IMG/VR virus record: IMGVR_UViG_3300037087_000181
Span: 21,257 to 85,256 of that record
Source: a virus
Reading direction: 5' to 3' (one strand)
DNA: 64,000 nt
The position numbers and the translations under genes are program-made. Of this stretch, positions 6,355 through 58,311 are shown in pieces. The notes under the pieces are model-generated. The model was not told the DNA's origin. It made no database searches and saw nothing but the letters and a program-made list of their open reading frames with translations. Position 1 is the first letter of the stretch. Each line of letters starts with the position of its first letter.

Positions 6355-6362
6355 TACCTTTG
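6355..6362 (+). promoter_or_regulatory. -7 promoter element TACCTTTG
   Basis: Immediately after the terminator; 20 nt before the TerL ATG (6383). Confidence 0.7.
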
Positions 6363-19045: not shown

Positions 19046-19053
19046 TATCTTTG
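19046..19053 (+). promoter_or_regulatory. -7 promoter element TATCTTTG
   Basis: Upstream of the ring-protein genes. Confidence 0.7.
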
Positions 19054-21190: not shown

Positions 21191-21209
21191 AAAAATAATT
21201 GTAAATTTA

Positions 21210-21241
21210 TTTGCATAATTCATTTATCTGGTTTATCTTTG
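21210..21241 (+). promoter_or_regulatory. sigma-A promoter (TTTG, 20 nt, TATCTTTG)
   Basis: Nearly identical to the promoter at 39266-39297. Confidence 0.8.
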
Positions 21242-21798: not shown

Positions 21799-22131
21799 AT
21801 GAAGACAAGTAAAATAGTTTTATTATCAGTTGCCGGATTTGTTTTTCTTTTACTCCTTGGTTTAGGGTTGGGATATTATGGAGTATTTGCCACAAAAACA
21901 GTAGGCAAGGCACAGCAGAACGCCAACAGGGAGGTCTTTGAACAGACACAGAGTTATGTTGAAGGGAAAAGGCAAGAACTACAAAAGGATTATCACGAAT
22001 GGTTGAATACGAAACCAGAAGATAAGGTGGCAATTGAAGGAATTATAAGATCAAGTTTCGCAAGTTTTGATGAAGATAAATATTTAACTGGCGATTTATA
22101 TAACTTCCTTCATAAAATAAAAAATAAATAA
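21799..22131 (+). CDS. single-TM membrane protein
   Basis: N-terminal TM; REVFEQTQSYVEG motif. Confidence 0.7.
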   Translation: MKTSKIVLLSVAGFVFLLLLGLGLGYYGVFATKTVGKAQQNANREVFEQTQSYVEGKRQELQKDYHEWLNTKPEDKVAIEGIIRSSFASFDEDKYLTGDLYNFLHKIKNK

Positions 22132-22156
22132 TTACTAAACCTTATGTATCAATGAG

Positions 22157-22188
22157 AGGGGACGGTCAAAAACGACTGTCCCTTTTTC
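22157..22188 (+). terminator. Rho-independent terminator
   Basis: GGGACGGTC...GACTGTCCC followed by a T run. Confidence 0.85.
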
Positions 22189-22192
22189 TTGC

Positions 22193-22200
22193 TATCTTTG
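22193..22200 (+). promoter_or_regulatory. -7 promoter element TATCTTTG
   Basis: Upstream of ATG 22219. Confidence 0.65.
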
Positions 22201-22218
22201 CAGAAGAATAAGATAATC

Positions 22219-22890
22219 ATGTGTGATATTCCAACAAAAGTTTGTTCTAAGTGTAAAATAGAGAAGCCTATTGATTGTTTTCATAAGAAAACAGCCAACA
22301 GGGACGGGCATAAGGCGGAATGTAAGGAGTGTATTGCAAAAGACGCCACTGTTTTTTATAAAAAAAACAAAGAAAGGGTTAATAAGGTTAAGAAAATATA
22401 TTATAACGCTCATAAGGAACAGTATTTTAAATATGGGAAAAAAGAAGGAAAGGTTGAGTATCAAAGGGATTATCGTAAAAGACATAAAGAATCATTAAAG
22501 GAATATAGTAGGGAGTATCGTAATAAAAATCGGATTCCCTTGAATGCAAAAAGACTTGCCAAGAAAAAAACAAATATTAATTTTATGCTGGCATGTACGC
22601 TCCGAAATGAGATATACAATGCTGTTAAAAAAAGCAAAAAGATATATAAGATGAAGGAGGTTCTTGGTTGTTCTCTTGATTTCTTAAAACAACACATTGA
22701 ATCTCAGTTCACAGAGGGTATGACATGGGAAAACCACGGAAGGTTTGGCTGGCATATTGATCATGTTCTTCCATGTAAGTCGTTTGACTTATCTGACTCA
22801 GAACAGCAGAAAAGGTGTTTCAATTGGAGTAATTTACAACCGCTTTGGTGGTATGACAATATATCTAAAGGTGCAAAGATAGTCGCATGA
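22219..22890 (+). CDS. HNH-type homing endonuclease, paralog of 16019-16759
   Basis: KVCSKC...DGHKAECKEC; GMTWENHG..GWHIDH..P...NLQPLW..DNISKG. Confidence 0.85.
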   Translation: MCDIPTKVCSKCKIEKPIDCFHKKTANRDGHKAECKECIAKDATVFYKKNKERVNKVKKIYYNAHKEQYFKYGKKEGKVEYQRDYRKRHKESLKEYSREYRNKNRIPLNAKRLAKKKTNINFMLACTLRNEIYNAVKKSKKIYKMKEVLGCSLDFLKQHIESQFTEGMTWENHGRFGWHIDHVLPCKSFDLSDSEQQKRCFNWSNLQPLWWYDNISKGAKIVA

Positions 22891-37885: not shown

Positions 37886-39243
37886 TGGAATTTAACAACT
37901 CATTTACGGGTAAAAATATAATAGCACCTCTCCCGTCAAGCGAGGGTTTACAGAGGTCACAGGAGAATATGGATAACATGATTCTTGGGGCTGAGAAATT
38001 AAAAACAGAAATTTATCAAAGAAACGCTGAACAGTTTCAGAAAGCATCTAATGTCCCTCCTGAATTTGTACTTGCCGATTCAGCACAGAAAACACAGATG
38101 GGCTTGATCAATGCATTTAATCAGAAATGGGGTAAGGCATTCCAACAGTCAGGTGGTAATCTTTCGGATGAGCAGAAGATGCAGATGACAACAGACAAAA
38201 ATGTTCTACTCATGCAACAGCAGCAGATGCAATCAAGCATGGTTAGGGCAATGAAAGATAGAGAAGATGTTCAGAAAGATGTACAGGGGAATTTAGACCA
38301 TGAGGATTTTAACAATAGGTGGAATGATTACCTAAAAACAGGAAATTATGATCAGTCTCCATTACTTCCTGCATCAATAAGTCCAAATGATTATTTCAAT
38401 AAAGATGCTAATAAGTTTAAGGGCAATCCTGCTGATGTGACAACGGTTGAAAATATTGGTGGTGTTCCTCAAAAGGTAACAAGAACTGCAAGTGGCACTG
38501 AAGCACAGGGCAGAACATGGGTACAGGACAGGCTTCATAATGATGACAGATTTGCAAGGGGTGTTATTCAAGATTTTCAGAACCTAAAAAACACAAATCC
38601 TTCGTTATATAAGCAGTATCTTGACACGGATATCAATGGAACCGTATCACCAGATGGGGCAAGGGCATCTCAATCGGTAAATAGCAATCCTATTTTAAAA
38701 TATGCTCAAGATAATTATTGGCAAAATGCATTAAAACTGGGTGAAAGTAAACCAGTAACGCTTAAAATGGGTAGTGCAACAAAGTTTGATTATAGTAAAG
38801 TAAATGCTACTAATAACCAAAACGGATTATATACACCACAGGACGGTTTCGCTGCCAAAGACGCAACTGGGAAGGTATTTAACTTACCCTCTTATCAGGA
38901 CTTAGGTCAGAAAAAGGTAGTCACCGTAGATCAGAATATTAAACAGATATACACCAAAGATAAAAACGGGAACGAAACACTTGTTCCTTTTAATCAATCA
39001 GCAAAATTTGATATTACCGGGTATAGTAAAGACAAAGATCAGATTCTTATAACTCTTGATAGCGGTACAACTGGCGATGGTGATTATAGTAAGGGAGATC
39101 AGCTTGTAGTACCAGCAGCAGATTTTGATGATGTGTTGAAAAATAAATATGGAATCTTTAGGGGACAACAAACTACAACAGCCACTACAAACTCTATTTT
39201 AGAGAGAGCCAAGCAACTTAATTCAAAGCCATCTAAAAAATAA
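37885..39243 (+). CDS. putative ejection/cargo protein
   Basis: Q/N/D-rich; lies between the small and large cargo genes. Confidence 0.55.
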   Translation: MEFNNSFTGKNIIAPLPSSEGLQRSQENMDNMILGAEKLKTEIYQRNAEQFQKASNVPPEFVLADSAQKTQMGLINAFNQKWGKAFQQSGGNLSDEQKMQMTTDKNVLLMQQQQMQSSMVRAMKDREDVQKDVQGNLDHEDFNNRWNDYLKTGNYDQSPLLPASISPNDYFNKDANKFKGNPADVTTVENIGGVPQKVTRTASGTEAQGRTWVQDRLHNDDRFARGVIQDFQNLKNTNPSLYKQYLDTDINGTVSPDGARASQSVNSNPILKYAQDNYWQNALKLGESKPVTLKMGSATKFDYSKVNATNNQNGLYTPQDGFAAKDATGKVFNLPSYQDLGQKKVVTVDQNIKQIYTKDKNGNETLVPFNQSAKFDITGYSKDKDQILITLDSGTTGDGDYSKGDQLVVPAADFDDVLKNKYGIFRGQQTTTATTNSILERAKQLNSKPSKK

Positions 39244-39265
39244 TTTTAAAATATTTTAAGATAAA

Positions 39266-39297
39266 TTTGCATAATTGGATTATGTGGTTTATCTTTG
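39266..39297 (+). promoter_or_regulatory. sigma-A promoter (TTTG, 20 nt, TATCTTTG)
   Basis: Seen directly. Confidence 0.8.
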
Positions 39298-39301
39298 GTG
39301 A

Positions 39302-39514
39302 ATGGAATATTACGAAGATTTTGAAAAAATTATTGAGTGGACAAAACTTATGAATAAGATTAAAACTCAAATTTTGGATTTAGCATCTCCTAAAAATTGG
39401 ATAGAAGATTATCCACACGAGAATGGAAATTATGTTAATAAGTGTATCCAATGTGGAGAGTTCTTTCTTGGGCATAAAAGAAGGGTGATTTGTAGAGAAT
39501 GTCAAACATCGTAA
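39302..39514 (+). CDS. small zinc-ribbon protein
   Basis: ENGNY...CIQCG..FLGHKRRVICREC; true start may be the internal Met. Confidence 0.6.
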   Translation: MEYYEDFEKIIEWTKLMNKIKTQILDLASPKNWIEDYPHENGNYVNKCIQCGEFFLGHKRRVICRECQTS

Positions 39515-39543
39515 ATAGCACCTAATCAATAATAAAGACCATT

Positions 39544-40005
39544 ATGGACAAATCGGTATTAACTTTATTAAGAGAAAACGGGCATTACATTGTTGAAAAT
39601 GACGTTTTTTCTGACAGGGAGGGGCGAAATTGGATATTGCATGGTATGTTGGGAAATAATAATTTCACGCTTTCTTGTTTAGATGATACCTTATGGACGG
39701 AAGTTACCTTAAAGGAATTAAGAGAAAAATACACATTCAAATGCGATGCACTTGTTATTTTAAATTCTCCCGAAATTCAAGGGAATCTTTCACGGGCTAA
39801 TCCTATAAGGAATCTTCCAATATATATTGAACATCTAAAAGAACCATCTATTGTGGCACAAATATTGGATGATTTAAAGGCTGAAATGCAGAAAGATTCT
39901 CCGTGGATAGAAGAAGAGGCAATAGATGATTTTTTAAAAACATACGGAGATGGTTTTGTGAAATTTGCGGCACTTTATAATGGACATGACCCCGCAAAGA
40001 ATTAG
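39544..40005 (+). CDS. hypothetical protein
   Basis: 153-aa ORF. Confidence 0.65.
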   Translation: MDKSVLTLLRENGHYIVENDVFSDREGRNWILHGMLGNNNFTLSCLDDTLWTEVTLKELREKYTFKCDALVILNSPEIQGNLSRANPIRNLPIYIEHLKEPSIVAQILDDLKAEMQKDSPWIEEEAIDDFLKTYGDGFVKFAALYNGHDPAKN

Positions 40006-40035
40006 TGATATTAAAACGCTTTAAATAAAAAGACT

Positions 40036-40043
40036 TATCTTTG
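40036..40043 (+). promoter_or_regulatory. -7 promoter element TATCTTTG
   Basis: Precedes the structured non-coding region. Confidence 0.7.
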
Positions 40044-40049
40044 CACCGG

Positions 40050-40450
40050 AAAATTAATCCTATGCGAGATAATTTGACACATAATCAAATAAAGATACTG
40101 GACTCCGTAGAGAGTTGTGTTGCGTTCTATTCGCATAGGATTCTATCAACCAACTTGACACGGAGTTCTTATGACTTATTCTCTCCGATTGCTAATTTCA
40201 TTTAGCAAAATCAAAGCAACGTAGTGGTTTATGGGATACCCAATGCGAAAAGAAGCTGTGTGACAGCCTTGAATGAAAGACAATAGCATTGGGATGGAGT
40301 ATAAAAGCGGTAGTCGTTGACAACAGGAGGGGAAACAAGTCCGCACTGGATTAATAAGAAACAACAGTTAAGGGGTACTCTCTTAAACCACAGTCTTCGG
40401 AAGCACCAAGAGAAGGGCATCTCTACATTCAAGGGATTTCATTCTTCTTT
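40050..40450 (+). ncRNA. candidate large structured RNA of unknown family
   Basis: At least 8 complementary segments including two crossing (pseudoknot) pairings; cUUCGg loop; bounded by two promoters; no convincing long ORF. Confidence 0.55.
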
Positions 40451-40480
40451 TGTGCTATTTAAAGGTTTGCCAAAAGTGAC

Positions 40481-40488
40481 TATCTTTG
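40481..40488 (+). promoter_or_regulatory. -7 promoter element TATCTTTG
   Basis: 20 nt before the large cargo ATG. Confidence 0.7.
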
Positions 40489-40508
40489 TAATCTATTAAT
40501 AATCCTTC

Positions 40509-43500
40509 ATGGAAGATAAAACACAACAACTATTTAATCTTTTAAATGAGTCTAAGGATTTCAAGGGTGCATTCAAAACCCCTGAAGAGTTAACCGCTAC
40601 ACTTTCTGATGAAACTAAGGTTGGTGCGTTATATTCATTGCTTAACGAGAGTGCTGATTTCAAAGGAGCATTTAATTCAATAGATGAGTTTAAAACATCA
40701 TTTGATATAAAAAAAAAAGTTTCTTCACAAGATGCGCTCACTTCTGCTTCGGGCAAAGAGGAACTTCCTTTATTAGATCAGTTAGGGCAAAAGCCACAGG
40801 ATTCCTTAACTCAACCATCACAGTCAACATCGGCTGAACCTGTTCAAAAAACAGAAGCGTTCACGTTCCCTGAACAAGCACCAATAATTGAACAACCAAG
40901 GGATGCCACTAATGTTAATATAGTACAAAGGACATCTTTGCCTACACCTCCCGAAACAGTAATGCGCCAAGGTAGAGGTCTTAAACCAGAAAATTTAGGG
41001 GAATATATTAAAGCCTTTGGTGGAACTCTTAACAGAGCCTTTGAAGAAGTACCCAAACTTGCCGATTGGATTCAGTCGACTGCTAATGATGCTGTTCTAC
41101 AAACTGTATATGGATTACCCGTGGCACAACAAGCACAGAAATTAAGAGCAGCAGGATTTGATTATTCTACTGCATTATCAACCGATCCAATGCAGCGTCC
41201 ATTTGGCATGATAGCTGATCTTCTTGAGGGTTGGACAGACAAAACCGTTGGGAAACTTGTATTACCACAAGGTAAGGAAAAGGGTGGTGTTATTGGTGAC
41301 ATAGCAACGGGTACGGCAAATGTATTACCCGATATTGCCTACGCATCAGTCCTTGCAACAGCAATGCCAGAGGTATTGGCGTTAAAAGCCATAGAGATGG
41401 CAACAGGAATAAACCTTGCGAGCAACTTTGGATTTGAACAGGGAATCAAAACTGCCGTAAGTAAATCTCAACAATTTGAAAATGGCGGTAATCTACAAAA
41501 GGTTCTTGCACCCGCAGTTGGGATGATAGAGGGTTATGCCCAAGGGTATTTCTTTGCGAATATGAGTACGAAAGGCAATGAGATAGGAAAGTCCATTGCC
41601 GATCAGGTTATGCCCAAAGTGACTACTGAAAGTCAGGCAATAAACAAAGCCATAATCCAAACAGGGGGGGCTACTGTAAGTACAGCAGGCATGTTTGGTG
41701 GATGGGGAGTACTTGATGAGTATAGAAGAACTGGGCAAGTTTCAGAGGATACTTTCTTATCCAACGCAGGACAGGGAATGGTGTTTGGTACAAAAGACCC
41801 ATTAAGAATGTTGCTTTCTAAAGGTGTGATGGCTTTTGTGGGCGCACCAAGACAGATGATTAATGATATAGCCAAGAGCGATATCCCCGCAGAAGAACAC
41901 GCTAAAAACGCACATGAAAAGTTTGATGCCGTAGCCAATGGAACATCAGCCAATCCCGAATCAGACCTTGCATCAGGTAAATTATCAATAAACACAGCCA
42001 TTTTAAAGGCTACTACAGAGCAGGTTTTAAATAATAAGGATGGGTTAATTTTAGCAGTAAAATCATCTACTTTTGAAACAAAAATTAAGGATGCTATTAT
42101 TGATAAAATTAATGCTATTGATGCCGACAATGACACTAAAATACAGGCTACAAAAGATATTACTGATAAAATCTCTAAGATTGATGATGCATTAAGTAAT
42201 ATAAGTGGTAATAATTCATGGGATGATGTCAGGAAAGAGGTTGAGTCAGCCCCGCTAAAGGAAAGAAAAGAAGAACTCAAACAGGACGCTAAAAAAGTCT
42301 ACGGTATTGAGCCTAAAGAACAGCCAAAAGGGGAAGATGGAAAGGTTAAGGAAAAACCGAAGGCAGTACAGACAGAATCGTCACAGAAATTTTTAGATGA
42401 CCTTGATAATTATAAGTTGGGTGACAAAACCTTCAAAAGTAAAGAAGACCTTACTAATTGGTTAGATAAAAACTACAATGAGAACGACAGGTTTAGTTCT
42501 GTCAACGAAGAAGGTTATCTTGAACCTAATACCATGAAAGTCTTTAACGAGTGGTATAAGGGTAATAAAGATAGGCTCGCTAAAGAAGAAATGGATCGCA
42601 TAGATAAAGAAAACCAAATTAATACACAGGAGGGAACACAAAATGCCAGTGAAAATAGAACATCAGATAGCCAACTCCCTGACCAAGGCACATCCGAATT
42701 GGAGCAAGGAAAAGGTAATGTCGACAATGTGGGCAACAATGAACAAAAAGGGACTACTCAAGAAGAAGTAAAACCAGTTGAAAATTCTATGTCTGATTCT
42801 AAGGATATCCCAAAAGGGGTCGAAGAACAGGTAAAGGAATACAAGAAACCCGGAGAGCTTCAAAAAGGATGGGAAGAAGCATTGCCCAATGTTCCTAAAA
42901 AAGAAATTGGCACATTAGACGATGGACGTAAAGTATCTATCGTTAATGGTACTGAAATGCGCAACAAGGTTTATACTAATTTCACGGAAGGGGGTAATTC
43001 TCATGCTTATCCGTGGATGAATAAGGGCGATCTTTTTATCGAAGACGTGGAAAGTGGTGAGGATAAGGTAGCTGATCTTATTCATGAGGCAGAAGAAGAC
43101 AGGGCTATGGATAAGCTTGGCATCTCTTACGATAAGGCACATGAAGAATATGGATTGCCTGCTGAACGAGAATATCGGGATACAGGAAAAATCCCTGATT
43201 ATCTTAAGCCAATAGCAGAATTATTATTAAAAGAACCTGCCGAACCCCTACAACAGCAGGAAAATGTCCCACGGGAGGGTACTATACCCCCAAAAGGCGA
43301 AGGAACTCTTCTAAAAGGTACAGAAGTACCACCGGAACAAATACCCCCTACCGAGCCGCCTATACGGGGGACAGTGGGTAATCAGGATAACCAACGGGAA
43401 AAGGGATTACTTAATAGGATTAAAAAAGCTAAGAATTTCAAGGAATTTGGTAAGGAAATAGAGGAAAAAGGATTAACATACGAGCAAATACCAAATAATG

Positions 43501-46500
43501 CCACGGCAGCACAGGTAGATGCCATGATTGCATCAAGAGGATTAAGACAATCCGAGGCAGATATCCGTAATGAGTCACTTAATATCCCGGACAGGATACG
43601 CTCAATGGGTGCTGTGCAAATACTTGACAAGTACAGGGAATTGGCACGGGACTCCAAAGATGATGTCGAAAAACAAGACTACATAAAACGAGCAGTTGAT
43701 TTAGCTGATTGGGTTGATAAAGCGGGACGTAATTGGGGACAAGCTATACAGGCACTTGCCTCCGAAAGAGTAAATAATATTCTTACTCCTGATATGCAAC
43801 TGCTAAAGGCTAAAAAGATGGTAGACAGTATGCGTCAAAAATTGCTTGATAAAAATGCTGATGACATTGCCACCAAGGGTCAGCAGATGAAAGACATTAA
43901 TAATAATGTTGTAGATCAGGTAATAAATTCTAAAGAATATCAGGACTTAAAGGATAGGGTTGCGGAACTTGAAAAGAAAGTTGCGGAACAAAAGGCAAAC
44001 CAGCCCAAATACAAAGCACGAATAAAACAAATACAGGCAGATCGTGCAAAAGAATGGGATGCATTCTTTAAAAGTTCACAGACTTCTGTATCGGCTATCG
44101 GATTAAGTTCAGAACAAATAGAACACCTTGGTAATATCTTGTCGCTATACGCACAGGAAGGGATTACAAGAGCAGAAGAAATACTCGATAGGTTTAAAAG
44201 GGAATATCTTGAGAAATCAGGGCAAGAACTTGATGATGATAAGGCAAAAGCATGGATAGCAGCGGCACAAAAAAGAAATGAAGAAGGTGGAGTAACAGCA
44301 GATGAACTTGATAATTATGTTGAAGCAAGGGAGAAAGGAAAACAAATTGACCAAATCGTCAAAGACCACTATACTAAACCTGATAAATCAGGAAGAAGTT
44401 TAAAAGAAAAACTTATTGAGGATGGAGGGTTAAAAGATGCAGATGCACAGAAGATAGCAGATAAAGCAGCGAAGAAATTCAAAGACCTTGCTACTCCTGA
44501 GAAGAAGAAAATATTAAAAGGGAAAAACAGCCTTGTAAATAAGATAATAGAACTCACTAATGCGGGAGCATGGGAAGATTCTGATCTAACAGATGCTTAT
44601 GCAAGGGCTTTTGGTTGGCCAAAACTGACAGATGAAAATATTAAAGAGATAACCAGATTGGCCGAATTGGCAGACAAAGCACCCAAAGGAGAACAGAAAA
44701 ATAAAGCGATACAAGCATTGCTCGCCTATCAATCGGCACACATCAAGGGAATTGATTTAGGTGATATAGGTAATGCCCTTTGGTATGCCTCCGCTCTTTC
44801 TGGTCCACATACGCATACGAAGAAAATGTCATCTGAATTACAAACAGTAGGACTCGAGACAATAGTAACTTCTTTGTATCATGCAAATCATCCCGGAGAT
44901 ATTCCCCATTTATTTTCAGCACTTCTGCGTGGATGGGGTGCTGGATATCAAAAAGCACTTGATGTATTAAAAACGGGGTATAACCCAATGAATAAGGAAG
45001 AAACCCCCGCTCTTCTTGAAATGGTTGATTCCCCGATAGCTAAAGTTGCCAGATATGTACAACGTATGTTCGTAGCAGTACAGCAGTTTAATGCAGGGCC
45101 ATCAAGAGAGATACGTGCTACTGAACTAGCTGTAGCAAAAGCGAGGGCAGAGAGACCCAGCGCAACAGAACCAGATAAAACTGATTGGGGGCGTGCATGG
45201 GATATATTGGCAAAGACACCCGAACAAAGGGTACAGTTTGAGCAACAGGCACAAAGTGAAGGATTAAAAGGGAGAGATTATAAACGTAGGGTGTGGGAGT
45301 TAATGGAACAGAATCGCCCCGATGATATAATGGAAAAAGCAGAAGCGTATTCTTTAAGAACTACATATATGGGACCACCCGAAGGACTCCTCGGTATGTT
45401 TGCTCACAAGATAGGACAAATGACTACTGCGGCTAGTGGAACTATACCAATACCATTTACCAAAAAAGAATATACACTCTATCCATTAAAGAGGATAGTT
45501 CCTTTCACCCGAGTATTGGCGAATCTTGGAAATCAGATGCTCGATTATTTTCCGCCTACGGGGCTTGCTCGTGCTGGCATTGGAAGCATGGGGGTATCTG
45601 GAATGAATAAATATCAATTTTCTAAGGGATATTACCGCAAATATACTCCTGAAGAAAGAGGAAAAGAAGCCATGAAAGGGTTAATCGGGATGGCAACTAT
45701 TGCCGGTATATGGGGGTTAACACAATTAAAAGATAAAGATGACAAACCATTCGTAGAAATAACTGCCAATGGCTATGGGAAGGGTGATCCACGCAATGAT
45801 GAATTAAAAAGACTTGGGTGGCAACCATTTTCATTAAGAGTCGGTGATCGTTGGTTTAGCTGGCAACATTCTCCTCTTGCATTAGCTATCGGCCCGTTGG
45901 GTTATTTTGATGATCTTTCAAAATATCACAAAGACGAGTCAGTAGATGATAAGTTTGCAATGAAGGTGGTAAAATGTTATGGAAATTCTATGACTACTAT
46001 TTTTTCTGCTCCTTACATAGAGGGCCTTAATAACTTTTTTGCAGCTATCGGATCAGGTGATCCTAATAAAACGGGAACATATATTTCCAGGTTAGCCTCG
46101 TCAATGGGTAAAAGTGTTGTCTATCCTAAATTAATAGAACAGACAGTACAGACTATTGATAATCTATCGAAAACAACAGAAAAGACGTCATCGGCTTGGG
46201 ATGCACAGATAATTAGAAACATGCCAGTGGCAAGAAATAAACTTAATGCGCTTTATAATTCTTGGGGAGATGAAGTGAAGACGCCCCCTGTCTTTGGTAT
46301 AACGAAGGTCGAACATGATCCTTTCTATGAATATCTTGTTAAAAATAATCTTAATTTAGCCGCACCCCGTCAGAAAGAGCCACATTACGATGATACTAAG
46401 GGTATTCTACGTCCGATGACTGATGATGAGTATGCCGATTTTATCCACAAAAGCGGGCAGGTTATCAAACAAAGGGTACAAAGTGAGGTTATTGACAAAA

Positions 46501-47003
46501 AGTTACCACAGGATGAAGCCGAAAAAGTTAAAAATAATATTTCAGGAGATGAAAGAAATAAATATATAACAGAATTATTCGGCTGGGGACAGTTAAGGCA
46601 AACTCATCCCGACGATTGGAAGGTAATGAAGGATAATGGGGCATTACAGATACCCCCCACGTCTGAACATCTCAAGGTAGGAAAAGAAAAAGTAACCATT
46701 GCCACAGAAGACAAGATTCCGTCAAAAGAACTTGAAACATTTAGAAATGCTGCGATGGAAGAATATCGCAAGAAAGTCATGCCGTATCTTCAGGATGCCG
46801 ATAGAGTAAAAGCCGATAAAAACAAGCCTGCTAAATATGAAACGGGTGAACAAAAGGGTAAAATCATGACAGATGAATATAATAATCCCATAATTAAATT
46901 TAACAATAAAATAAAAGGATTATGGGCAGATGCTCTTGCAAAAGCCAAAGATCAAACCGAAACAATATTAAAGCAAGAGAAAAATACAACAACTCAAAAG
47001 TAA
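40509..47003 (+). CDS. large virion cargo/ejection (polyvalent-type) protein
   Basis: 2164 aa; helical; HExxE metallopeptidase-like insert; C-terminal region like large polyvalent proteins. Confidence 0.65.
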   Translation: MEDKTQQLFNLLNESKDFKGAFKTPEELTATLSDETKVGALYSLLNESADFKGAFNSIDEFKTSFDIKKKVSSQDALTSASGKEELPLLDQLGQKPQDSLTQPSQSTSAEPVQKTEAFTFPEQAPIIEQPRDATNVNIVQRTSLPTPPETVMRQGRGLKPENLGEYIKAFGGTLNRAFEEVPKLADWIQSTANDAVLQTVYGLPVAQQAQKLRAAGFDYSTALSTDPMQRPFGMIADLLEGWTDKTVGKLVLPQGKEKGGVIGDIATGTANVLPDIAYASVLATAMPEVLALKAIEMATGINLASNFGFEQGIKTAVSKSQQFENGGNLQKVLAPAVGMIEGYAQGYFFANMSTKGNEIGKSIADQVMPKVTTESQAINKAIIQTGGATVSTAGMFGGWGVLDEYRRTGQVSEDTFLSNAGQGMVFGTKDPLRMLLSKGVMAFVGAPRQMINDIAKSDIPAEEHAKNAHEKFDAVANGTSANPESDLASGKLSINTAILKATTEQVLNNKDGLILAVKSSTFETKIKDAIIDKINAIDADNDTKIQATKDITDKISKIDDALSNISGNNSWDDVRKEVESAPLKERKEELKQDAKKVYGIEPKEQPKGEDGKVKEKPKAVQTESSQKFLDDLDNYKLGDKTFKSKEDLTNWLDKNYNENDRFSSVNEEGYLEPNTMKVFNEWYKGNKDRLAKEEMDRIDKENQINTQEGTQNASENRTSDSQLPDQGTSELEQGKGNVDNVGNNEQKGTTQEEVKPVENSMSDSKDIPKGVEEQVKEYKKPGELQKGWEEALPNVPKKEIGTLDDGRKVSIVNGTEMRNKVYTNFTEGGNSHAYPWMNKGDLFIEDVESGEDKVADLIHEAEEDRAMDKLGISYDKAHEEYGLPAEREYRDTGKIPDYLKPIAELLLKEPAEPLQQQENVPREGTIPPKGEGTLLKGTEVPPEQIPPTEPPIRGTVGNQDNQREKGLLNRIKKAKNFKEFGKEIEEKGLTYEQIPNNATAAQVDAMIASRGLRQSEADIRNESLNIPDRIRSMGAVQILDKYRELARDSKDDVEKQDYIKRAVDLADWVDKAGRNWGQAIQALASERVNNILTPDMQLLKAKKMVDSMRQKLLDKNADDIATKGQQMKDINNNVVDQVINSKEYQDLKDRVAELEKKVAEQKANQPKYKARIKQIQADRAKEWDAFFKSSQTSVSAIGLSSEQIEHLGNILSLYAQEGITRAEEILDRFKREYLEKSGQELDDDKAKAWIAAAQKRNEEGGVTADELDNYVEAREKGKQIDQIVKDHYTKPDKSGRSLKEKLIEDGGLKDADAQKIADKAAKKFKDLATPEKKKILKGKNSLVNKIIELTNAGAWEDSDLTDAYARAFGWPKLTDENIKEITRLAELADKAPKGEQKNKAIQALLAYQSAHIKGIDLGDIGNALWYASALSGPHTHTKKMSSELQTVGLETIVTSLYHANHPGDIPHLFSALLRGWGAGYQKALDVLKTGYNPMNKEETPALLEMVDSPIAKVARYVQRMFVAVQQFNAGPSREIRATELAVAKARAERPSATEPDKTDWGRAWDILAKTPEQRVQFEQQAQSEGLKGRDYKRRVWELMEQNRPDDIMEKAEAYSLRTTYMGPPEGLLGMFAHKIGQMTTAASGTIPIPFTKKEYTLYPLKRIVPFTRVLANLGNQMLDYFPPTGLARAGIGSMGVSGMNKYQFSKGYYRKYTPEERGKEAMKGLIGMATIAGIWGLTQLKDKDDKPFVEITANGYGKGDPRNDELKRLGWQPFSLRVGDRWFSWQHSPLALAIGPLGYFDDLSKYHKDESVDDKFAMKVVKCYGNSMTTIFSAPYIEGLNNFFAAIGSGDPNKTGTYISRLASSMGKSVVYPKLIEQTVQTIDNLSKTTEKTSSAWDAQIIRNMPVARNKLNALYNSWGDEVKTPPVFGITKVEHDPFYEYLVKNNLNLAAPRQKEPHYDDTKGILRPMTDDEYADFIHKSGQVIKQRVQSEVIDKKLPQDEAEKVKNNISGDERNKYITELFGWGQLRQTHPDDWKVMKDNGALQIPPTSEHLKVGKEKVTIATEDKIPSKELETFRNAAMEEYRKKVMPYLQDADRVKADKNKPAKYETGEQKGKIMTDEYNNPIIKFNNKIKGLWADALAKAKDQTETILKQEKNTTTQK

Positions 47004-47033: not shown

Positions 47034-47450
47034 ATGGCAGTACTATTAACAAACACAGGAAGTCCGCTTCCATTATGGTTTCGGGATATCCTTTCATATT
47101 CAAGCATAGGAACAGTAGCCATAGACCCGGTAGCTACTTATCAGGCAAGTGCCAAAGCAACATCTAACCTATCTTTGATGAATGAGTATGTGGCTCATGG
47201 CTTTGGCGTAAAGAACGCCACAGACACCGCAGCTTATATCTTTGCTATTACCCTTGCACAGTACGAAAGTTACGTCACGCAAAACAGAGGCATATTACCT
47301 GCAAACTATGTTCTAACTGGTATTACCCCAAGACAGATTCATCTTGCAGCAGGGGAGTGGTGTTTGACTCCAATCGTAAAGGTTTTCGCAGGTAACGCTG
47401 GTGGTGGATTTGCAAGCACAGTTACGGTTGTAAATGTCGGGCTTATATGA
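47034..47450 (+). CDS. hypothetical (probable structural) protein
   Basis: 138-aa ORF after the promoter. Confidence 0.65.
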   Translation: MAVLLTNTGSPLPLWFRDILSYSSIGTVAIDPVATYQASAKATSNLSLMNEYVAHGFGVKNATDTAAYIFAITLAQYESYVTQNRGILPANYVLTGITPRQIHLAAGEWCLTPIVKVFAGNAGGGFASTVTVVNVGLI

Positions 47451-48052
47451 ATCGAGTAGGTGTATATCAAATTAGTTCCATTTGTAAGTCTAATAGGATG
47501 TATATTGGAAGTTCGGTGAATATACAGAAACGGTGGTTAATGCACCTATCACAGTTAAGGATTAATAAACACCACTCTGTTAAACTCCAACGTCATTATA
47601 ATAAATACGGAGAAGAAGATTTATTTTTCTCTATATTATACCAAACAAGAAAGGAAGACGTTCTTTTAATGGAGCAAGTATTACTGGATATACACAAACC
47701 TTATTTCAATAATAGTTATGTGGCGGGCAGTCCACGAGGATGTAAAAGAAGTAAGAAAACAATAGAGAAGCACAGAAAACAAATTATTGGTAAGCCATCT
47801 TGGAACAAGGGTATTCCCATGAGTGAAGAGACCAAAAGAAAAGATAGTGAATCTCATATTGGTAAAATTCCGTGGATGAAAGGGAAACATCATAAGGCGG
47901 AATCAAATCAAAAGAATAGGGATGGCCACCTTGGTAAAAAACATTCTGATTCTACTATTAATAAATTAAAGGAGCGCATTCCTTGGAATAAGGGACTTAA
48001 AAAGAAGAAAGGTGCAATAGGCGTGATTAGTAAAAACAATTTAATACTTTAA
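47447..48052 (+). CDS. GIY-YIG homing endonuclease with NUMOD3 repeats
   Basis: GVYQI...MYIGSS...R; PSWNKG, PWMKGKHH and PWNKG repeats. Confidence 0.9.
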   Translation: MNRVGVYQISSICKSNRMYIGSSVNIQKRWLMHLSQLRINKHHSVKLQRHYNKYGEEDLFFSILYQTRKEDVLLMEQVLLDIHKPYFNNSYVAGSPRGCKRSKKTIEKHRKQIIGKPSWNKGIPMSEETKRKDSESHIGKIPWMKGKHHKAESNQKNRDGHLGKKHSDSTINKLKERIPWNKGLKKKKGAIGVISKNNLIL

Positions 48053-54637: not shown

Positions 54638-55381
54638 ATGAGAAAATTAATGTTTGGGAAAAAATCCCCACGTCTCGATTATAGAACATTGATGTTCACA
54701 AACTACCTGACACCAGAGATAGCACCTCCTCCTCCGGCATTCGATAATCTTATCACTGTTTATAATAAGACAAAGATATCTGATCCTACAAAACTTTATC
54801 CGATGCTAGGAAACGATCGTCTCGGAGATTGTACCATTGCGGGCATGGCACATGCCAGAACAGTCTATGCAGGATTAATTGGACAAAAATCTATACCGAC
54901 TGAATGTACTGTTACAAAACTCTATAAAAAACTTACAGGAGGGCCAGACACGGGGTTAGTGGAACTCGATGTTTTAAACTATTGGAGACAAAATTCCTTT
55001 AGCGGGGAAAAGATACTTGCCTATGCAAAAATATCTGACATTACAAATCATGTTCATGTAAAACAAGCCATACAATTGTTTGGGGGTCTTTACTTGGGAT
55101 TTAATGTTCAAGAGAACTGTCTAAGTGACTTTGGCAACCATATACCTTGGACTCCCGGTAAGTTATTAAACGAGGGACATGCTATCTTTGCGACATCATA
55201 CGATCCCGATTTTATTACTGTATTAACATGGGGTAATACCCAGAAGGGTGATTGGAAATGGTGGGATGAATGTGTTGATGAAGCATACGTGATTCTTCCG
55301 ATGGAAGCAAAAAATCCATCATTCTGTCCCGGCTTTGATTTTCAGCAATTAGAGGAAGACCTTACCATCGTTTCAAAATAA
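54638..55381 (+). CDS. papain-like cysteine peptidase
   Basis: NDRLGDCTIAG (Cys), GHAI (His) and TWG. Confidence 0.7.
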   Translation: MRKLMFGKKSPRLDYRTLMFTNYLTPEIAPPPPAFDNLITVYNKTKISDPTKLYPMLGNDRLGDCTIAGMAHARTVYAGLIGQKSIPTECTVTKLYKKLTGGPDTGLVELDVLNYWRQNSFSGEKILAYAKISDITNHVHVKQAIQLFGGLYLGFNVQENCLSDFGNHIPWTPGKLLNEGHAIFATSYDPDFITVLTWGNTQKGDWKWWDECVDEAYVILPMEAKNPSFCPGFDFQQLEEDLTIVSK

Positions 55382-55382
55382 A

Positions 55383-55414
55383 TTTGGATTTCTCAAATAT
55401 AAAGTTTATCTTTG
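55383..55414 (+). promoter_or_regulatory. sigma-A promoter (TTTG, 20 nt, TATCTTTG)
   Basis: Seen directly. Confidence 0.8.
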
Positions 55415-55449
55415 ATGCTTAATAGTATAAACTTAATAATTTAAGAAAA

Positions 55450-55650
55450 ATGGATTTATTAACGATTGTAATTATTTTGATTGCTGTTGGAATACTTTTG
55501 TTTATTATAAATCGTATTCCATTCATTGATGCTGGAGTAAAAACTATTCTCTATTGGGTAGTTATAGGCGTTGTTGTAATTTGGTTACTTGCCCCGTTAG
55601 GGGTATTCCATTACATAGGTAATGTGCATATTGGTAGATTTCGAAACTAA
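55450..55650 (+). CDS. small 2-TM membrane protein (Thivi_2564-like)
   Basis: LIAVGILLFIIN.IP....KTIL..VVI..VVIWLL. Confidence 0.7.
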   Translation: MDLLTIVIILIAVGILLFIINRIPFIDAGVKTILYWVVIGVVVIWLLAPLGVFHYIGNVHIGRFRN

Positions 55651-55659
55651 TAATTTAAA

Positions 55660-55923
55660 ATGAAAGCTAATTTTTTGAATTTAAATTGGTATGATTTTGG
55701 TAAGGGTGCTGTTGTTGCTGTTCTTACAGCCGTATTAGCCACGCTGACAACACTCTTACAAACAGGTAAATTATTTGATAAAGCCAGCTTACCCGTGATT
55801 GGAACCGCCGCTCTTACTGCTTTTATAGCATATCTTGGAAAGAATTTATTTACTAATTCGCAAGGTCAGTTATTGACTACTGAAAAAAATGCAACACCAG
55901 AAATTGTAAAACCTTTAAAATAA
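55660..55923 (+). CDS. holin-like 2-TM protein
   Basis: DFGKG.VVAVL...AYLGKNLFTN. Confidence 0.6.
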   Translation: MKANFLNLNWYDFGKGAVVAVLTAVLATLTTLLQTGKLFDKASLPVIGTAALTAFIAYLGKNLFTNSQGQLLTTEKNATPEIVKPLK

Positions 55924-55948: not shown

Positions 55949-56413
55949 ATGAAAAAACTAATCGTAATTTTTACTCTTGCAATGTTCACCATTGCTGGGA
56001 TGTCACAAAGTGTATTTAAACCCGTCCCTAAAGACTTATTTAAAACAATCAACCTGACGGTGGCAAAAGCAAATCTTATTAATACCACTTTCTTATGGCG
56101 GTTTAACGCATCGGTTGTTGGTGATGAACTGGTCTATAATAAGACAACAAAACAGTTCGATTCAGCTCCTTTAAGTGGCGTAGGCCCTGGATTCGGGATA
56201 CGTCATTATTATCAAGCACCTGATGGCACACCCGCAAGCGATTGGGGTATAAGTTTTGTTGCATTACTCGGTACTGATATTAATAACATCACACCAGCTT
56301 CAATTAAACCAGCAATTACCATTAATGCCTTCAATTTTGTTAATGTAGGTGTCGATTATGGATTTGGAAATAAAGCATTTGGAATAATTTTAGGCGCACA
56401 GGCGAATTTTTAA
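55949..56413 (+). CDS. putative outer-membrane beta-barrel protein
   Basis: Signal peptide ending AGMS-Q; alternating amphipathic beta strands; C-terminal Phe. Confidence 0.55.
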   Translation: MKKLIVIFTLAMFTIAGMSQSVFKPVPKDLFKTINLTVAKANLINTTFLWRFNASVVGDELVYNKTTKQFDSAPLSGVGPGFGIRHYYQAPDGTPASDWGISFVALLGTDINNITPASIKPAITINAFNFVNVGVDYGFGNKAFGIILGAQANF

Positions 56414-56432
56414 CACACTTTCTTTCTTAATT

Positions 56433-56465
56433 AAGCGGGCAATTAACTTTGACCCGCTTTTTTTT
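56433..56465 (+). terminator. Rho-independent terminator
   Basis: AAGCGGG...CCCGCTT followed by a T run. Confidence 0.8.
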
Positions 56466-56487
56466 ATGAAAAATAGTTGAGTCTTTA

Positions 56488-56519
56488 TTTGTTTAATTCA
56501 AAACTTAAGTTTACATTTA
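56488..56519 (+). promoter_or_regulatory. variant sigma-A promoter (TTTG, 20 nt, TACATTTA)
   Basis: Same spacing as the other class-A promoters; last base differs. Confidence 0.55.
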
Positions 56520-56543
56520 CACAGTAAACTTAAAAATAATACT

Positions 56544-56669
56544 ATGAAAACATTAAAATTTTACTTGCCATTCATTTTATGGAGCACTGGAACAGTAATC
56601 CTAACGATTATCTGTTTCATTTTACTGCCCATATACTTATTGGTCGAGAAATTATTTTATAGGAAATAA
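56544..56669 (+). CDS. small hydrophobic peptide (41 aa)
   Basis: Hand-translated MKTLKFYLPFILWSTGTVILTIICFILLPIYLLVEKLFYRK*. Confidence 0.55.
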   Translation: MKTLKFYLPFILWSTGTVILTIICFILLPIYLLVEKLFYRK

Positions 56670-56684
56670 TTAAACTCCCAGACT

Positions 56685-57395
56685 ATGAAAACATTAATCT
56701 TTCTTTTACTTTTCTGTTTTGCCTGTACAAAGATAGAATACATTACGGAACAGGCAGCGGCTACTGATTCAACTAATATAGGAGGGAAAAAACCCGTTGA
56801 TACAATCATGAAAAAGCCATACACCCTTCATGATATTGATGGTAATGTTTACGACTCTGTTATGCTTGGCACACAGACATGGATGGCAGAAAATCTAAAA
56901 ACAACTAAATATAATAATGGATTATCTATACCAAATGTTACTGATAATAATACATGGAAATCATTATCCACAGATGCCTTTTGTTGGTATGACAATGATA
57001 TTTCTTATAAAAATATAATGGGGTGCTTATATAATTATTATGCTGTTACCGATAAACTTTGCCCGGTCGGTTGGCGTGTACCAAGAGATGGCGATTGGAA
57101 GATATTAGAGATGTTAATGGGGATGAGCCTTACTGAAGCAGATAGTTTAAACTGGCGGGGTGATGGGGATGCTTTTATACTTGAATCATCTAATTTCAAG
57201 GCGTTATTCGCAGGCTTTAGAAGTGGGTGGTATGGTGATTTCGGAGACTACGGACAAGGAGCATATTTCTGGACTGGTTCAGAATATGATAAAACTACAG
57301 CATATTGTAGATCTCTTGAATACCCCATAAATAAAATAAATAGAGGGCCAAATGCTAAATCAAGCGGGTTCTCAATAAGATGTATAAAAAATTAA
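56685..57395 (+). CDS. FISUMP-domain lipoprotein
   Basis: Lipobox FAC; DIDGNVY...GTQTWMAENL, LCPVGWRVP and GFSIRCIKN. Confidence 0.85.
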   Translation: MKTLIFLLLFCFACTKIEYITEQAAATDSTNIGGKKPVDTIMKKPYTLHDIDGNVYDSVMLGTQTWMAENLKTTKYNNGLSIPNVTDNNTWKSLSTDAFCWYDNDISYKNIMGCLYNYYAVTDKLCPVGWRVPRDGDWKILEMLMGMSLTEADSLNWRGDGDAFILESSNFKALFAGFRSGWYGDFGDYGQGAYFWTGSEYDKTTAYCRSLEYPINKINRGPNAKSSGFSIRCIKN

Positions 57396-57399
57396 AGAC

Positions 57400-58311
57400 A
57401 TGAAAACATTTGATGAAATTATTCCCTCATTCCTTTCCAATATAAAAATAAAGGTAAAAGAAAGGACATATAAATCTTATCTTGGAAAAATTAATATCTT
57501 TAGTCGGTGGTTAGCTTTGTACGGATTTAGCGACACCCCCTTGGCTAAAATTGATGAACAGATAATTGAGCAGTTCTCCATCTATCTTGCTGATGAGAAG
57601 AAATTAGATCGCCCAACATGTCATAAATATTGCAACAATATAAGACAGGTGTTCCAATACGCAATGACAAGAGGTGAGATAATAAAACTTCCATTTGATC
57701 TCTTTGTGTTGCCACAAAAAAAGGCAGACATGGGCGCACAAGTCATTGAGAAAGAACACATGCGTACCCTGTTAACAGAAATTAAAAAGAAAGATAAGCA
57801 ACTCTATGTGGCCTGTCTGATGGAATATTATTGTTTTACCAGGCCGGGGAGAGAACTACGACTCCTGAAAGTAAAAGACATTGATACTATCAATTGGACA
57901 ATAAAAGTAGATGCCGACCACGCTAAGAACGGACACAAAAGAATAGTTACTGTCCCAAATGAGCTTATAACTGTTCTTAAAGAATATGGCATAGAAAAGG
58001 CAGATAAAGACTTATTTATCTTTGGGAAGCATAAAAATACAGACACCGTTCCTTGCAGCATTAACGTGCTCCGTTATCGGTTTAATAAGTATAGGGATAA
58101 ATTTGGAATGCCTAAAGAGTATAAGTTCTACAGTTTTAAAGCGACAGGAGCTACTTCTTTACATAATACCAACATGGTCTCCTTACGGTCTATTATGACA
58201 CAATTGGGGCATCTTAATTTATCATCTACTCAGTATTATATACAAAAACACGCAGGAATTATTGACACAGTAATAAGAGATAATTTCCCCAACCCTATGC
58301 GTATAAACTAA
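57400..58311 (+). CDS. int: tyrosine recombinase/integrase
   Basis: SAM-like core; CFTRPGRE (Arg), AKNG (Lys), YSFK, QLGH and TQYY. Confidence 0.85.
   Translation: MKTFDEIIPSFLSNIKIKVKERTYKSYLGKINIFSRWLALYGFSDTPLAKIDEQIIEQFSIYLADEKKLDRPTCHKYCNNIRQVFQYAMTRGEIIKLPFDLFVLPQKKADMGAQVIEKEHMRTLLTEIKKKDKQLYVACLMEYYCFTRPGRELRLLKVKDIDTINWTIKVDADHAKNGHKRIVTVPNELITVLKEYGIEKADKDLFIFGKHKNTDTVPCSINVLRYRFNKYRDKFGMPKEYKFYSFKATGATSLHNTNMVSLRSIMTQLGHLNLSSTQYYIQKHAGIIDTVIRDNFPNPMRIN

Follow-up and report, generated by a model that had tools for sequence, protein, structure and literature searches.

A putative cis-acting RNA hairpin overlapping a short reading frame in an accessory block of a crAss-like phage

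What, if anything, is specified by the gene-free gap of 503 nt (40006-40508) that lies between a 153-aa ORF and the gene of a 2164-aa giant protein in a crAss-like phage of Bacteroidota? The gap belongs to a window of 64,000 nt, by which we mean the whole stretch of DNA that was analysed. The first-pass annotation had taken 40044-40450 for a promoter-driven RNA of about 400 nt with two pseudoknot-type pairings, and had suggested a ribozyme, a packaging, replication or regulatory RNA, or else a structured ssDNA origin. Our best explanation is a cis-acting hairpin element towards the 5' end of an accessory transcript with its own promoter, where the gap would form the last unit of a moron-like block gained by this lineage between two virion cargo genes; we give this explanation, taken jointly with all its parts, about an even chance of being right. 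The features on which the argument is built are collected in Table 1.

Table 1. Features of the gap and its surroundings; positions are those of the window, except in the last row, where the locus is named.
Feature	Position	Strand	Remarks
Bacteroidota-type -7 promoter box TATCTTTG	40036-40043	+	motif enrichment and spacing to gene starts
Next TATCTTTG box	40481-40488	+	28 nt 5' of the giant gene ATG (40509)
"AUG box" AATCCTATGCGA, 5' arm of the 12-bp pairing	40056-40067	+	includes the ORF start codon; duplex -17.4 kcal/mol
47-codon frame, ATG to TAG	40062-40205	+	two translated relatives; ATG 26 nt from the promoter box start
H-A, long imperfect hairpin, 69 nt, loop UCGC	40100-40168	+	-27.6 kcal/mol, z -3.73, MFE frequency 0.21
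3' arm of the 12-bp pairing, TCGCATAGGATT	40131-40142	+	shares nucleotides with the apical stem of H-A (loop and 3' side)
Small hairpin TTGCTAA/TTAGCAA	40189-40208	+	holds the TAG stop of the ORF; z -5.2
"Enclosing" helix GTGGTTTA/TAAACCAC	40224-40391	+	perfect 8 bp; probability 0 in the full-length nested ensemble
Hairpin H-C CCCAATGC/GCATTGGG with inner GCTGT-GTG-ACAGC	40239-40293	+	-17.6 kcal/mol, z -3.53, pair probability ~1.0 (full-length ensemble)
Second crossing pairing CCTTGAATG (40267-75)/CATTCAAGG (40426-34)	40267-40434	+	perfect 9 bp, duplex -10.8 kcal/mol
Long terminal hairpin, U-rich 3' arm	40402-40456	+	-19.4 kcal/mol, z -3.42
Accessory block	39244-40508	+	70-aa ORF, 153-aa ORF and gap; flanked by the 452-aa gene (5') and the 2164-aa giant cargo gene (3')
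Gene junction in relatives	L002 2499; L003 4424-4436; L006 7347-7367; L007 3867		block absent

The window was taken from an IMG/VR virus record of 85,256 bp that is rated complete. PHROG matches within it comprise a terminase, a portal, a virion protein and an integrase, and the + strand carries nearly all genes as far as 58.3 kb. The public runs holding the stretch are peat metagenomes, together with one lake-water run from which a near-identical contig of 312 nt was recovered; it covers 40333-40644 with 5 differences, joining the 3' end of the gap to the giant gene, and therefore the phage lineage is not restricted to peat. The change G40416A in this contig lies in the loop or a bulge of a hairpin and says nothing about pairing. 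No Pfam domain was detected in the giant cargo protein (40509-47003). ART-PolyVal (PF18760) or Zeta-toxin (PF06414) domains occur in its distant relatives, so that it looks like one of a polyvalent family of ejected proteins and not like the crAss virion RNA polymerase. Two genes 3' of the giant gene, a free-standing GIY-YIG-type homing endonuclease gene was observed (47447-48052; phrog_314, E 1e-20), with a 138-aa ORF (47034-47450) lying between the two.

The region was said to start just after one promoter and to end before the next, and this was borne out by boxes at 40036 and 40481. The window has 26 copies of the 8-mer TATCTTTG where 4.3 would be expected, mostly 23-35 nt 5' of + strand gene starts (11 other genes), and the 8-mer fits TAnnTTTG, the -7 promoter consensus of Bacteroidota (PMC7366714); the region is preceded by a host-type box, as are the intergenic sRNAs of that phylum. 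From its position we infer a transcription start near 40050. On the - strand of the gap, only ORFs with a TTG start and no promoter box were found. Two promoters elsewhere in the window, at 21204-21241 and 39260-39297, share an extended upstream block (AATTTGCATAATT ... GGTT TATCTTTG), which suggests from its sequence a duplicated or specially regulated promoter type.

The 3' end is less clearly marked. A terminator scan of the + strand over 39000-41000 called none, the hairpin at 40402-40456 included; directly 3' of this hairpin stands AUUUAAAGG rather than the U-run that follows the GC hairpin of intergenic sRNAs. Canonical terminators composed of a GC hairpin and a T-run were seen just 5' of the promoter boxes at 6355 and 22193. 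The 40402-40456 hairpin is a possible non-canonical transcript end. As no canonical terminator follows the gap, the transcript may continue into the giant gene, which has its own box. Such read-through is at the heart of one alternative, in which an attenuator-like region, made up of a long structured leader and a short ORF upstream, would control the passage of transcription from 40036 into the giant cargo gene. The absence of a canonical terminator throughout 40036-40509, the large hairpin just 5' of the giant gene and the ability of CCTTGAATG to pair with the apex of that hairpin, as an anti-terminator would, are all in line with it, and long leaders with short ORFs have been reported in Bacteroides (PMC7366714). 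Nonetheless, the giant gene possesses a promoter box immediately before its ATG, its relatives express it without any leader, the hairpin is devoid of the U-run typical of the terminators of this phage, and comparative support is missing, so that we regard a leader of this kind as very unlikely.

Direct inspection of the sequence found every pairing listed in the first-pass annotation at its position, and both crossings are topologically real. Positions 40056-67 and 40131-42 form a perfect 12-bp pair, and 40100-08/40160-68 form 9 pairs with one G.U. Perfect pairs were likewise found at 40189-95/40202-08, 40224-31/40384-91, 40239-46/40286-93 and 40267-75/40426-34, along with the small hairpins GCTGT-GTG-ACAGC (40255-67), TTAAG..CTTAA (40368-86) and AGAGA/TCTCT and a C-UUCG-G loop at 40395-40400. 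The region as a whole folds modestly beyond chance: the minimum free energy of the + strand is -119 kcal/mol (z -3.98, with 0 of 100 shuffles as good) against z -1.91 for the - strand, the region ranks second of 425 windows in composition-corrected folding energy, and it falls within the top 1-2% of the window for foldability on the + strand only. It holds six perfect stems of at least 8 bp, where the background is 1.5 +/- 1.4 and 1.3% of windows reach six. Four local hairpins are significant when folded alone, namely 40100-68 (z -3.7), 40189-208 (z -5.2), 40239-93 (z -3.5) and 40402-56 (z -3.4); the last three are probably real local folds of one transcript. The stretches 40044-99 (z -0.4) and 40296-396 (z -0.6) fold no better than shuffles, and the 3' part as a whole (40210-40470) reaches z -1.8.

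Single pairings are another matter, for none of them, the perfect 12-bp one included, is rarer than chance in 64 kb. Perfect inverted repeats of at least 12 nt within 400 nt number five in the window, one of which is an A/T palindrome, and the three others with separated arms all lie inside long ORFs. Within the region itself, 14 stems of at least 7 bp compete with one another, and long-range partners such as 40053-60/40348-55 and 40179-86/40326-33 are the ones used in the full-length minimum-energy fold. The enclosing helix forms only when the 3' part is folded alone, and the CCTTGAATG/CATTCAAGG pairing competes with the apex of the terminal hairpin. The earlier proposal of a structured RNA is divided: hairpin H-A holds, by virtue of the compensatory changes described below, while the pseudoknot and enclosing pairings each occur at chance frequency and the enclosing helix has no share in the full-length ensemble.

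That the region does not look like a tRNA, tmRNA, RNase P or group I core by eye was confirmed by Rfam 15 and ARAGORN. At gathering thresholds, Rfam 15 gave 0 matches over the whole window (ribozymes, group I and II introns, RNase P, 6S, GOLLD, ROOL, HEARO, riboswitches and others), and ARAGORN found 0 tRNA or tmRNA genes in the same window. With E raised to 10, the stretch 39900-40600 returned two chance-level matches only, both on the - strand (SNORD47 with 17.8 bits against 50, and Esr41 with 16.6 against 102). No ribozyme family matched up to that E value, and nothing points to a ribozyme or a packaging RNA.

These data bear on a second alternative, namely a stand-alone ncRNA of about 400 nt (~40050-40460), multi-domain and with two pseudoknots, that would act in trans or as a ribozyme and in which a 47-codon frame would be incidental. 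The strand-specific fold, the excess of stems, the four independent hairpins and the lack of an Rfam match all favor such an RNA. Against it stand the pseudoknot arms and the enclosing helix, which are at chance and have equally good competing partners, the poorly folding 3' half, the lack of a called terminator or a ribozyme family, and comparative data that stop at 40170. Taking into account the properties of the reading frame, to which we return below, we consider this RNA unlikely.

The frame just mentioned, of 144 nt, occupies the first third of the region and had been missed in the first reading. It is also the part for which relatives are available. An exhaustive HMMER search of 1.84 billion representatives retrieved P0015, a 64-aa sequence from a 38,885-nt Logan contig with 62% identity over 42 residues (E 7.7e-6), and a profile search added P0017, a 66-aa sequence from a 514-nt ENA contig; only these two relatives were found overall. 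All three sequences begin with MR, and they share the block CVAFYSHRILSTNLTR almost unchanged. Similarity to the relatives is lost past about 40170 and returns at about 40212-40235 in the same frame; by the protein alignment, the region of the TTGCTAA/TTAGCAA hairpin is 12 nt shorter in P0015.

When projected on the four stems of H-A (40100-08/40160-68, 40112-17/40151-56, 40119-22/40147-50 and 40124-30/40135-41), the differences between these sequences follow the pairing. The nucleotide changes considered are those forced by the amino acids of the two relatives, silent changes being invisible, and the fold was predicted from the sequence of this phage alone. P0015 implies T40104C together with A40164G and T40128C together with A40137G, each turning a U-A pair into C-G; its A40113G and A40152G both result in a G.U pair, one further change lies in an internal loop of H-A, and the partner of T40126A is a silent position. 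P0017 has the 40104/40164 change in common with P0015, and its G40101A turns a G.U pair into A-U. H-A has therefore received two double compensatory changes and three single changes that keep the pair. At least two double compensations were obtained with a frequency of 0.004 under a simulated null with the same number of changes, no double compensation was seen in controls with the partners slid by 1-3 positions, and the insertions and deletions of P0015 and P0017 all fall outside H-A. The compensatory changes argue that H-A, its apical stem 40124-30/40135-41 included, is under RNA-level selection on the + strand, and on this comparison of sequences we take the hairpin to be kept by such selection. 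The covariation that had been asked of homologues was accordingly found for H-A only, with two translated relatives as the source.

An imperfect hairpin of this kind has familiar counterparts among phage transcripts. The sites in T7 early mRNA are RNase III-type processing hairpins, and H-A would be similar to them in forming an imperfect 26-bp hairpin with symmetric internal loops and compensatory changes. Unlike the T7 sites, which lie between genes, H-A is found inside a conserved reading frame, and the likeness is put forward as an analogy.

The same data speak on whether the signal resides in RNA or in DNA. The strand-specific fold and the dependence of helices on G.U pairs point to RNA and not to DNA; the G.U pairs created by the changes would be mismatches (C/A) on the other strand or in DNA. 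An element acting at the DNA level (an origin, structured ssDNA or protein-binding palindromes), or chance inverted repeats in a decaying insert, could account for the many inverted repeats and would agree with a recent insert that has few relatives. However, the fold is strand-asymmetric, the compensatory changes argue against chance repeats, and cumulative GC skew rises smoothly through 40 kb, turning only near 58 kb. The ssDNA origin of the first-pass annotation finds no support in this skew, and we hold a DNA-level or chance explanation to be extremely unlikely.

Is the frame, then, a gene? Its ATG stands at the same distance from the promoter box as in the genes at 19046 and 22193, as expected of a gene start, and the lack of structure in the leader (40044-99) also speaks for translation. 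About 85 codons can be read in this frame with one stop, against 8-9 stops in each of the other two, and the length differences among the three sequences are multiples of three; this picture of a frame kept open is biased by the fact that relatives are visible only where the frame has already been called as a gene. A reading as an ordinary gene for a small protein, 47 aa long in this phage and ~64 aa in the ancestor, with an untranslated spacer behind it and with RNA pairings devoid of function, would explain the spacing, the open frame, the differences in threes and the two relatives called as ORFs with the same start. Yet it leaves the two double compensations, with their low chance expectation and empty slid controls, without a cause, and the codon usage is unlike that of the genes of this phage. 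The frame scores -0.011, compared with -0.06 +/- 0.07 for spurious ORFs and 0.21 +/- 0.10 for real gene starts, among which it falls in the lowest 2.6%; the neighbouring 70-aa and 153-aa ORFs have normal scores of 0.16 and 0.26, respectively. Moreover, neither the C-terminus nor the length is conserved, the frame stopping after 47 or 64 codons or running for at least 66; searches of Pfam and PHROG assigned the short frame to no family, and AlphaFold on the three sequences returned a single helix with pLDDT 59, which is uninformative. A plain protein gene is thus decidedly improbable in our estimate.

Several of these features can be turned in favor of the stand-alone ncRNA. The radical replacements seen in the relatives (S to P, S to G, Y to H and R to G) are exactly those that preserve RNA pairs, and the similarity to P0015 runs past the stop in the same frame, as conservation at the nucleotide level would give. 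Together with spurious-like codon usage, variable stops and low pLDDT, they may mean that the frame is untranslated and that the element is an ncRNA in its own right. The gene-like spacing of the ATG, the unusually open frame and the frame-keeping length differences stand on the other side, and we place translation of the 47 codons at about even.

The cis-acting hairpin that we prefer accommodates both kinds of signal. The host-type box at 40036 would drive a + strand transcript from about 40050, the functional core of which would be the 69-nt H-A within a short frame (47 codons here and 64-66 in the two relatives). H-A would then act in cis on the short transcript that contains it, setting how stable this transcript is, how it is processed or how it is translated. 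One route to translational control is offered by the 12-bp pairing, the 3' arm of which overlaps the apical stem of H-A, so that pairing and apical stem are mutually exclusive. The fold with H-A is predicted at -40.7 kcal/mol and the fold in which the 12-bp helix is forced at -39.1 kcal/mol, and two states so nearly isoenergetic would suit a translational on/off switch. Perhaps the AUG box invades the apex of H-A and hides the start codon, giving one fold for on and another for off. The sole visible change that touches the 12-bp pairing is A40137G, which leaves a U.G pair only if T40061 is unchanged.

Sequestering of the start codon by fold-back inhibition is known from small genes of phages and plasmids, as in hok-type mRNAs. 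The modelled RNA resembles them in that its AUG region can pair without a mismatch with a segment further downstream, which may otherwise be taken up in a local hairpin, and two exclusive folds of similar energy are predicted. It differs from them in that the peptide has no hydrophobic membrane-spanning stretch and the other strand carries no antisense RNA gene or promoter.

The distribution of the gap was inspected through the relatives of the giant protein. The loci of eight of them were compared. Four of these (L002, L003, L006 and L007) reach into the upstream side, and there the accessory block is absent, a gene of ~450-620 aa abutting the giant gene with gaps of 0-19 nt. In this phage, 1,265 nt (~1.26 kb) separate the 452-aa gene from the giant gene. 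The 70-aa ORF of the block is zinc-ribbon-like, and each unit, that is the 70-aa ORF, the 153-aa ORF and the gap, is provided with its own TATCTTTG box upstream. For the 153-aa ORF, a single relative was retrieved from 5.8 billion clusters, with 75% identity and conservative changes. Searches with the gap itself returned promoter-box matches only from nine related loci, L002-L009 among them (nhmmer and blastn), and no match from the GenBank phage collection (blastn), in which P0015 had no match either (tblastn). A covariance model of the hairpin matched neither the related loci nor three related phages searched over their full records, of which two are complete. In IMG/VR, no homologue of the gap was reached by the N-terminus of the giant protein, exact 20-22-mers, peptide patterns of the short frame or a degenerate pattern; the GTDB genomes scanned gave no match, and the JGI metagenomes gave only relatives of the giant protein, either without the upstream part or without the insert. 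The absence of the gap from the relatives and from GenBank and the single relative of the 153-aa ORF indicate that the block is a rare accessory one and was recently gained. We read the RNA element as real but narrowly distributed, carried in a moron-like cassette and probably acting in cis on its own transcript.

Contigs from RNA libraries (two peat metatranscriptomes, 166-241 nt) map to 39617-39876, within the 153-aa ORF, with a word depth of ~70 for one of them. They may reflect strong expression of this orphan gene or DNA carry-over, and the stretch 39600-39890 has no unusual structure (z -0.55). None of these contigs covers the gap, and contigs of this kind cannot show the absence of a transcript.

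Two groups of described RNAs invite comparison. The crAss-like Cellulophaga phage phi14:2 has abundant intergenic long ncRNAs at its g004-g005 and g005-g006 junctions, which lie in the early region and have a high measured expression (bioRxiv 10.1101/2020.03.07.982082). Like them, the gap spans a few hundred nt free of genes, lies in a crAss-like phage of Bacteroidota and belongs to no RNA family, the transcript being predicted in our case. Unlike them, the element sits among virion cargo genes, follows a host-type box and overlaps a short frame, and the likeness is one of description. Intergenic sRNAs of Bacteroides, on the other hand, have their own TAnnTTTG promoter, an intrinsic terminator and a size of 30-500 nt (PMC7366714). 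The present element shares with them a promoter box of its own, a size within that range and a structured sequence; it departs from them by lacking a canonical terminator and an Rfam match, by residing in a phage and not in a chromosome, and by overlapping an ORF.

A bolder proposal would make 40050-40460 a new family of phage ncRNA, in which a conserved hairpin and a pseudoknot switch with the start-codon-like 5' box are joined to a second pseudoknotted domain, the whole travelling in a mobile accessory cassette beside the gene of the ejected giant cargo protein and acting in trans in the course of infection, for example as a decoy or regulator directed against the host. We consider this rather improbable. 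Apart from the internal 12-mer, no complementary targets of at least 10 nt beyond chance were found elsewhere in the window.

If the hairpin transcript is functional, it would add a further uncatalogued RNA element to those of crAss-like and other Bacteroidota phages. It would moreover belong to an acquired cassette and not to the core genome, and would represent a "moron" with a payload that is at least partly RNA structure. The locus also lends itself to testing how a translated mini-gene can be distinguished from a structured RNA where the signals of both overlap. Records of the lineage are few, namely peat, a single near-identical contig from lake water and two distant relatives. The wider impact of the element would be limited unless its expression and a phenotype came to light.

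Finally, other parts of the window are also rich in potential structure. The highest composition-corrected folding energy was recorded at 21901-22450, in two adjacent 400-nt windows (-2.8 and -2.6 sd) that span the surroundings of a 110-aa ORF and the start of the next gene. Perfect stems of at least 8 bp are most numerous at 55301-55800 and 56301-56900 (8 each), and a 22-nt near-palindrome is found in these gene-poor stretches at 56490-56523. Both stretches lie just 5' of the integrase operon, whose tyrosine integrase (57400-58311; phrog_1, E 2.5e-33) occurs in the same genome as crAss-like terminase and portal genes.
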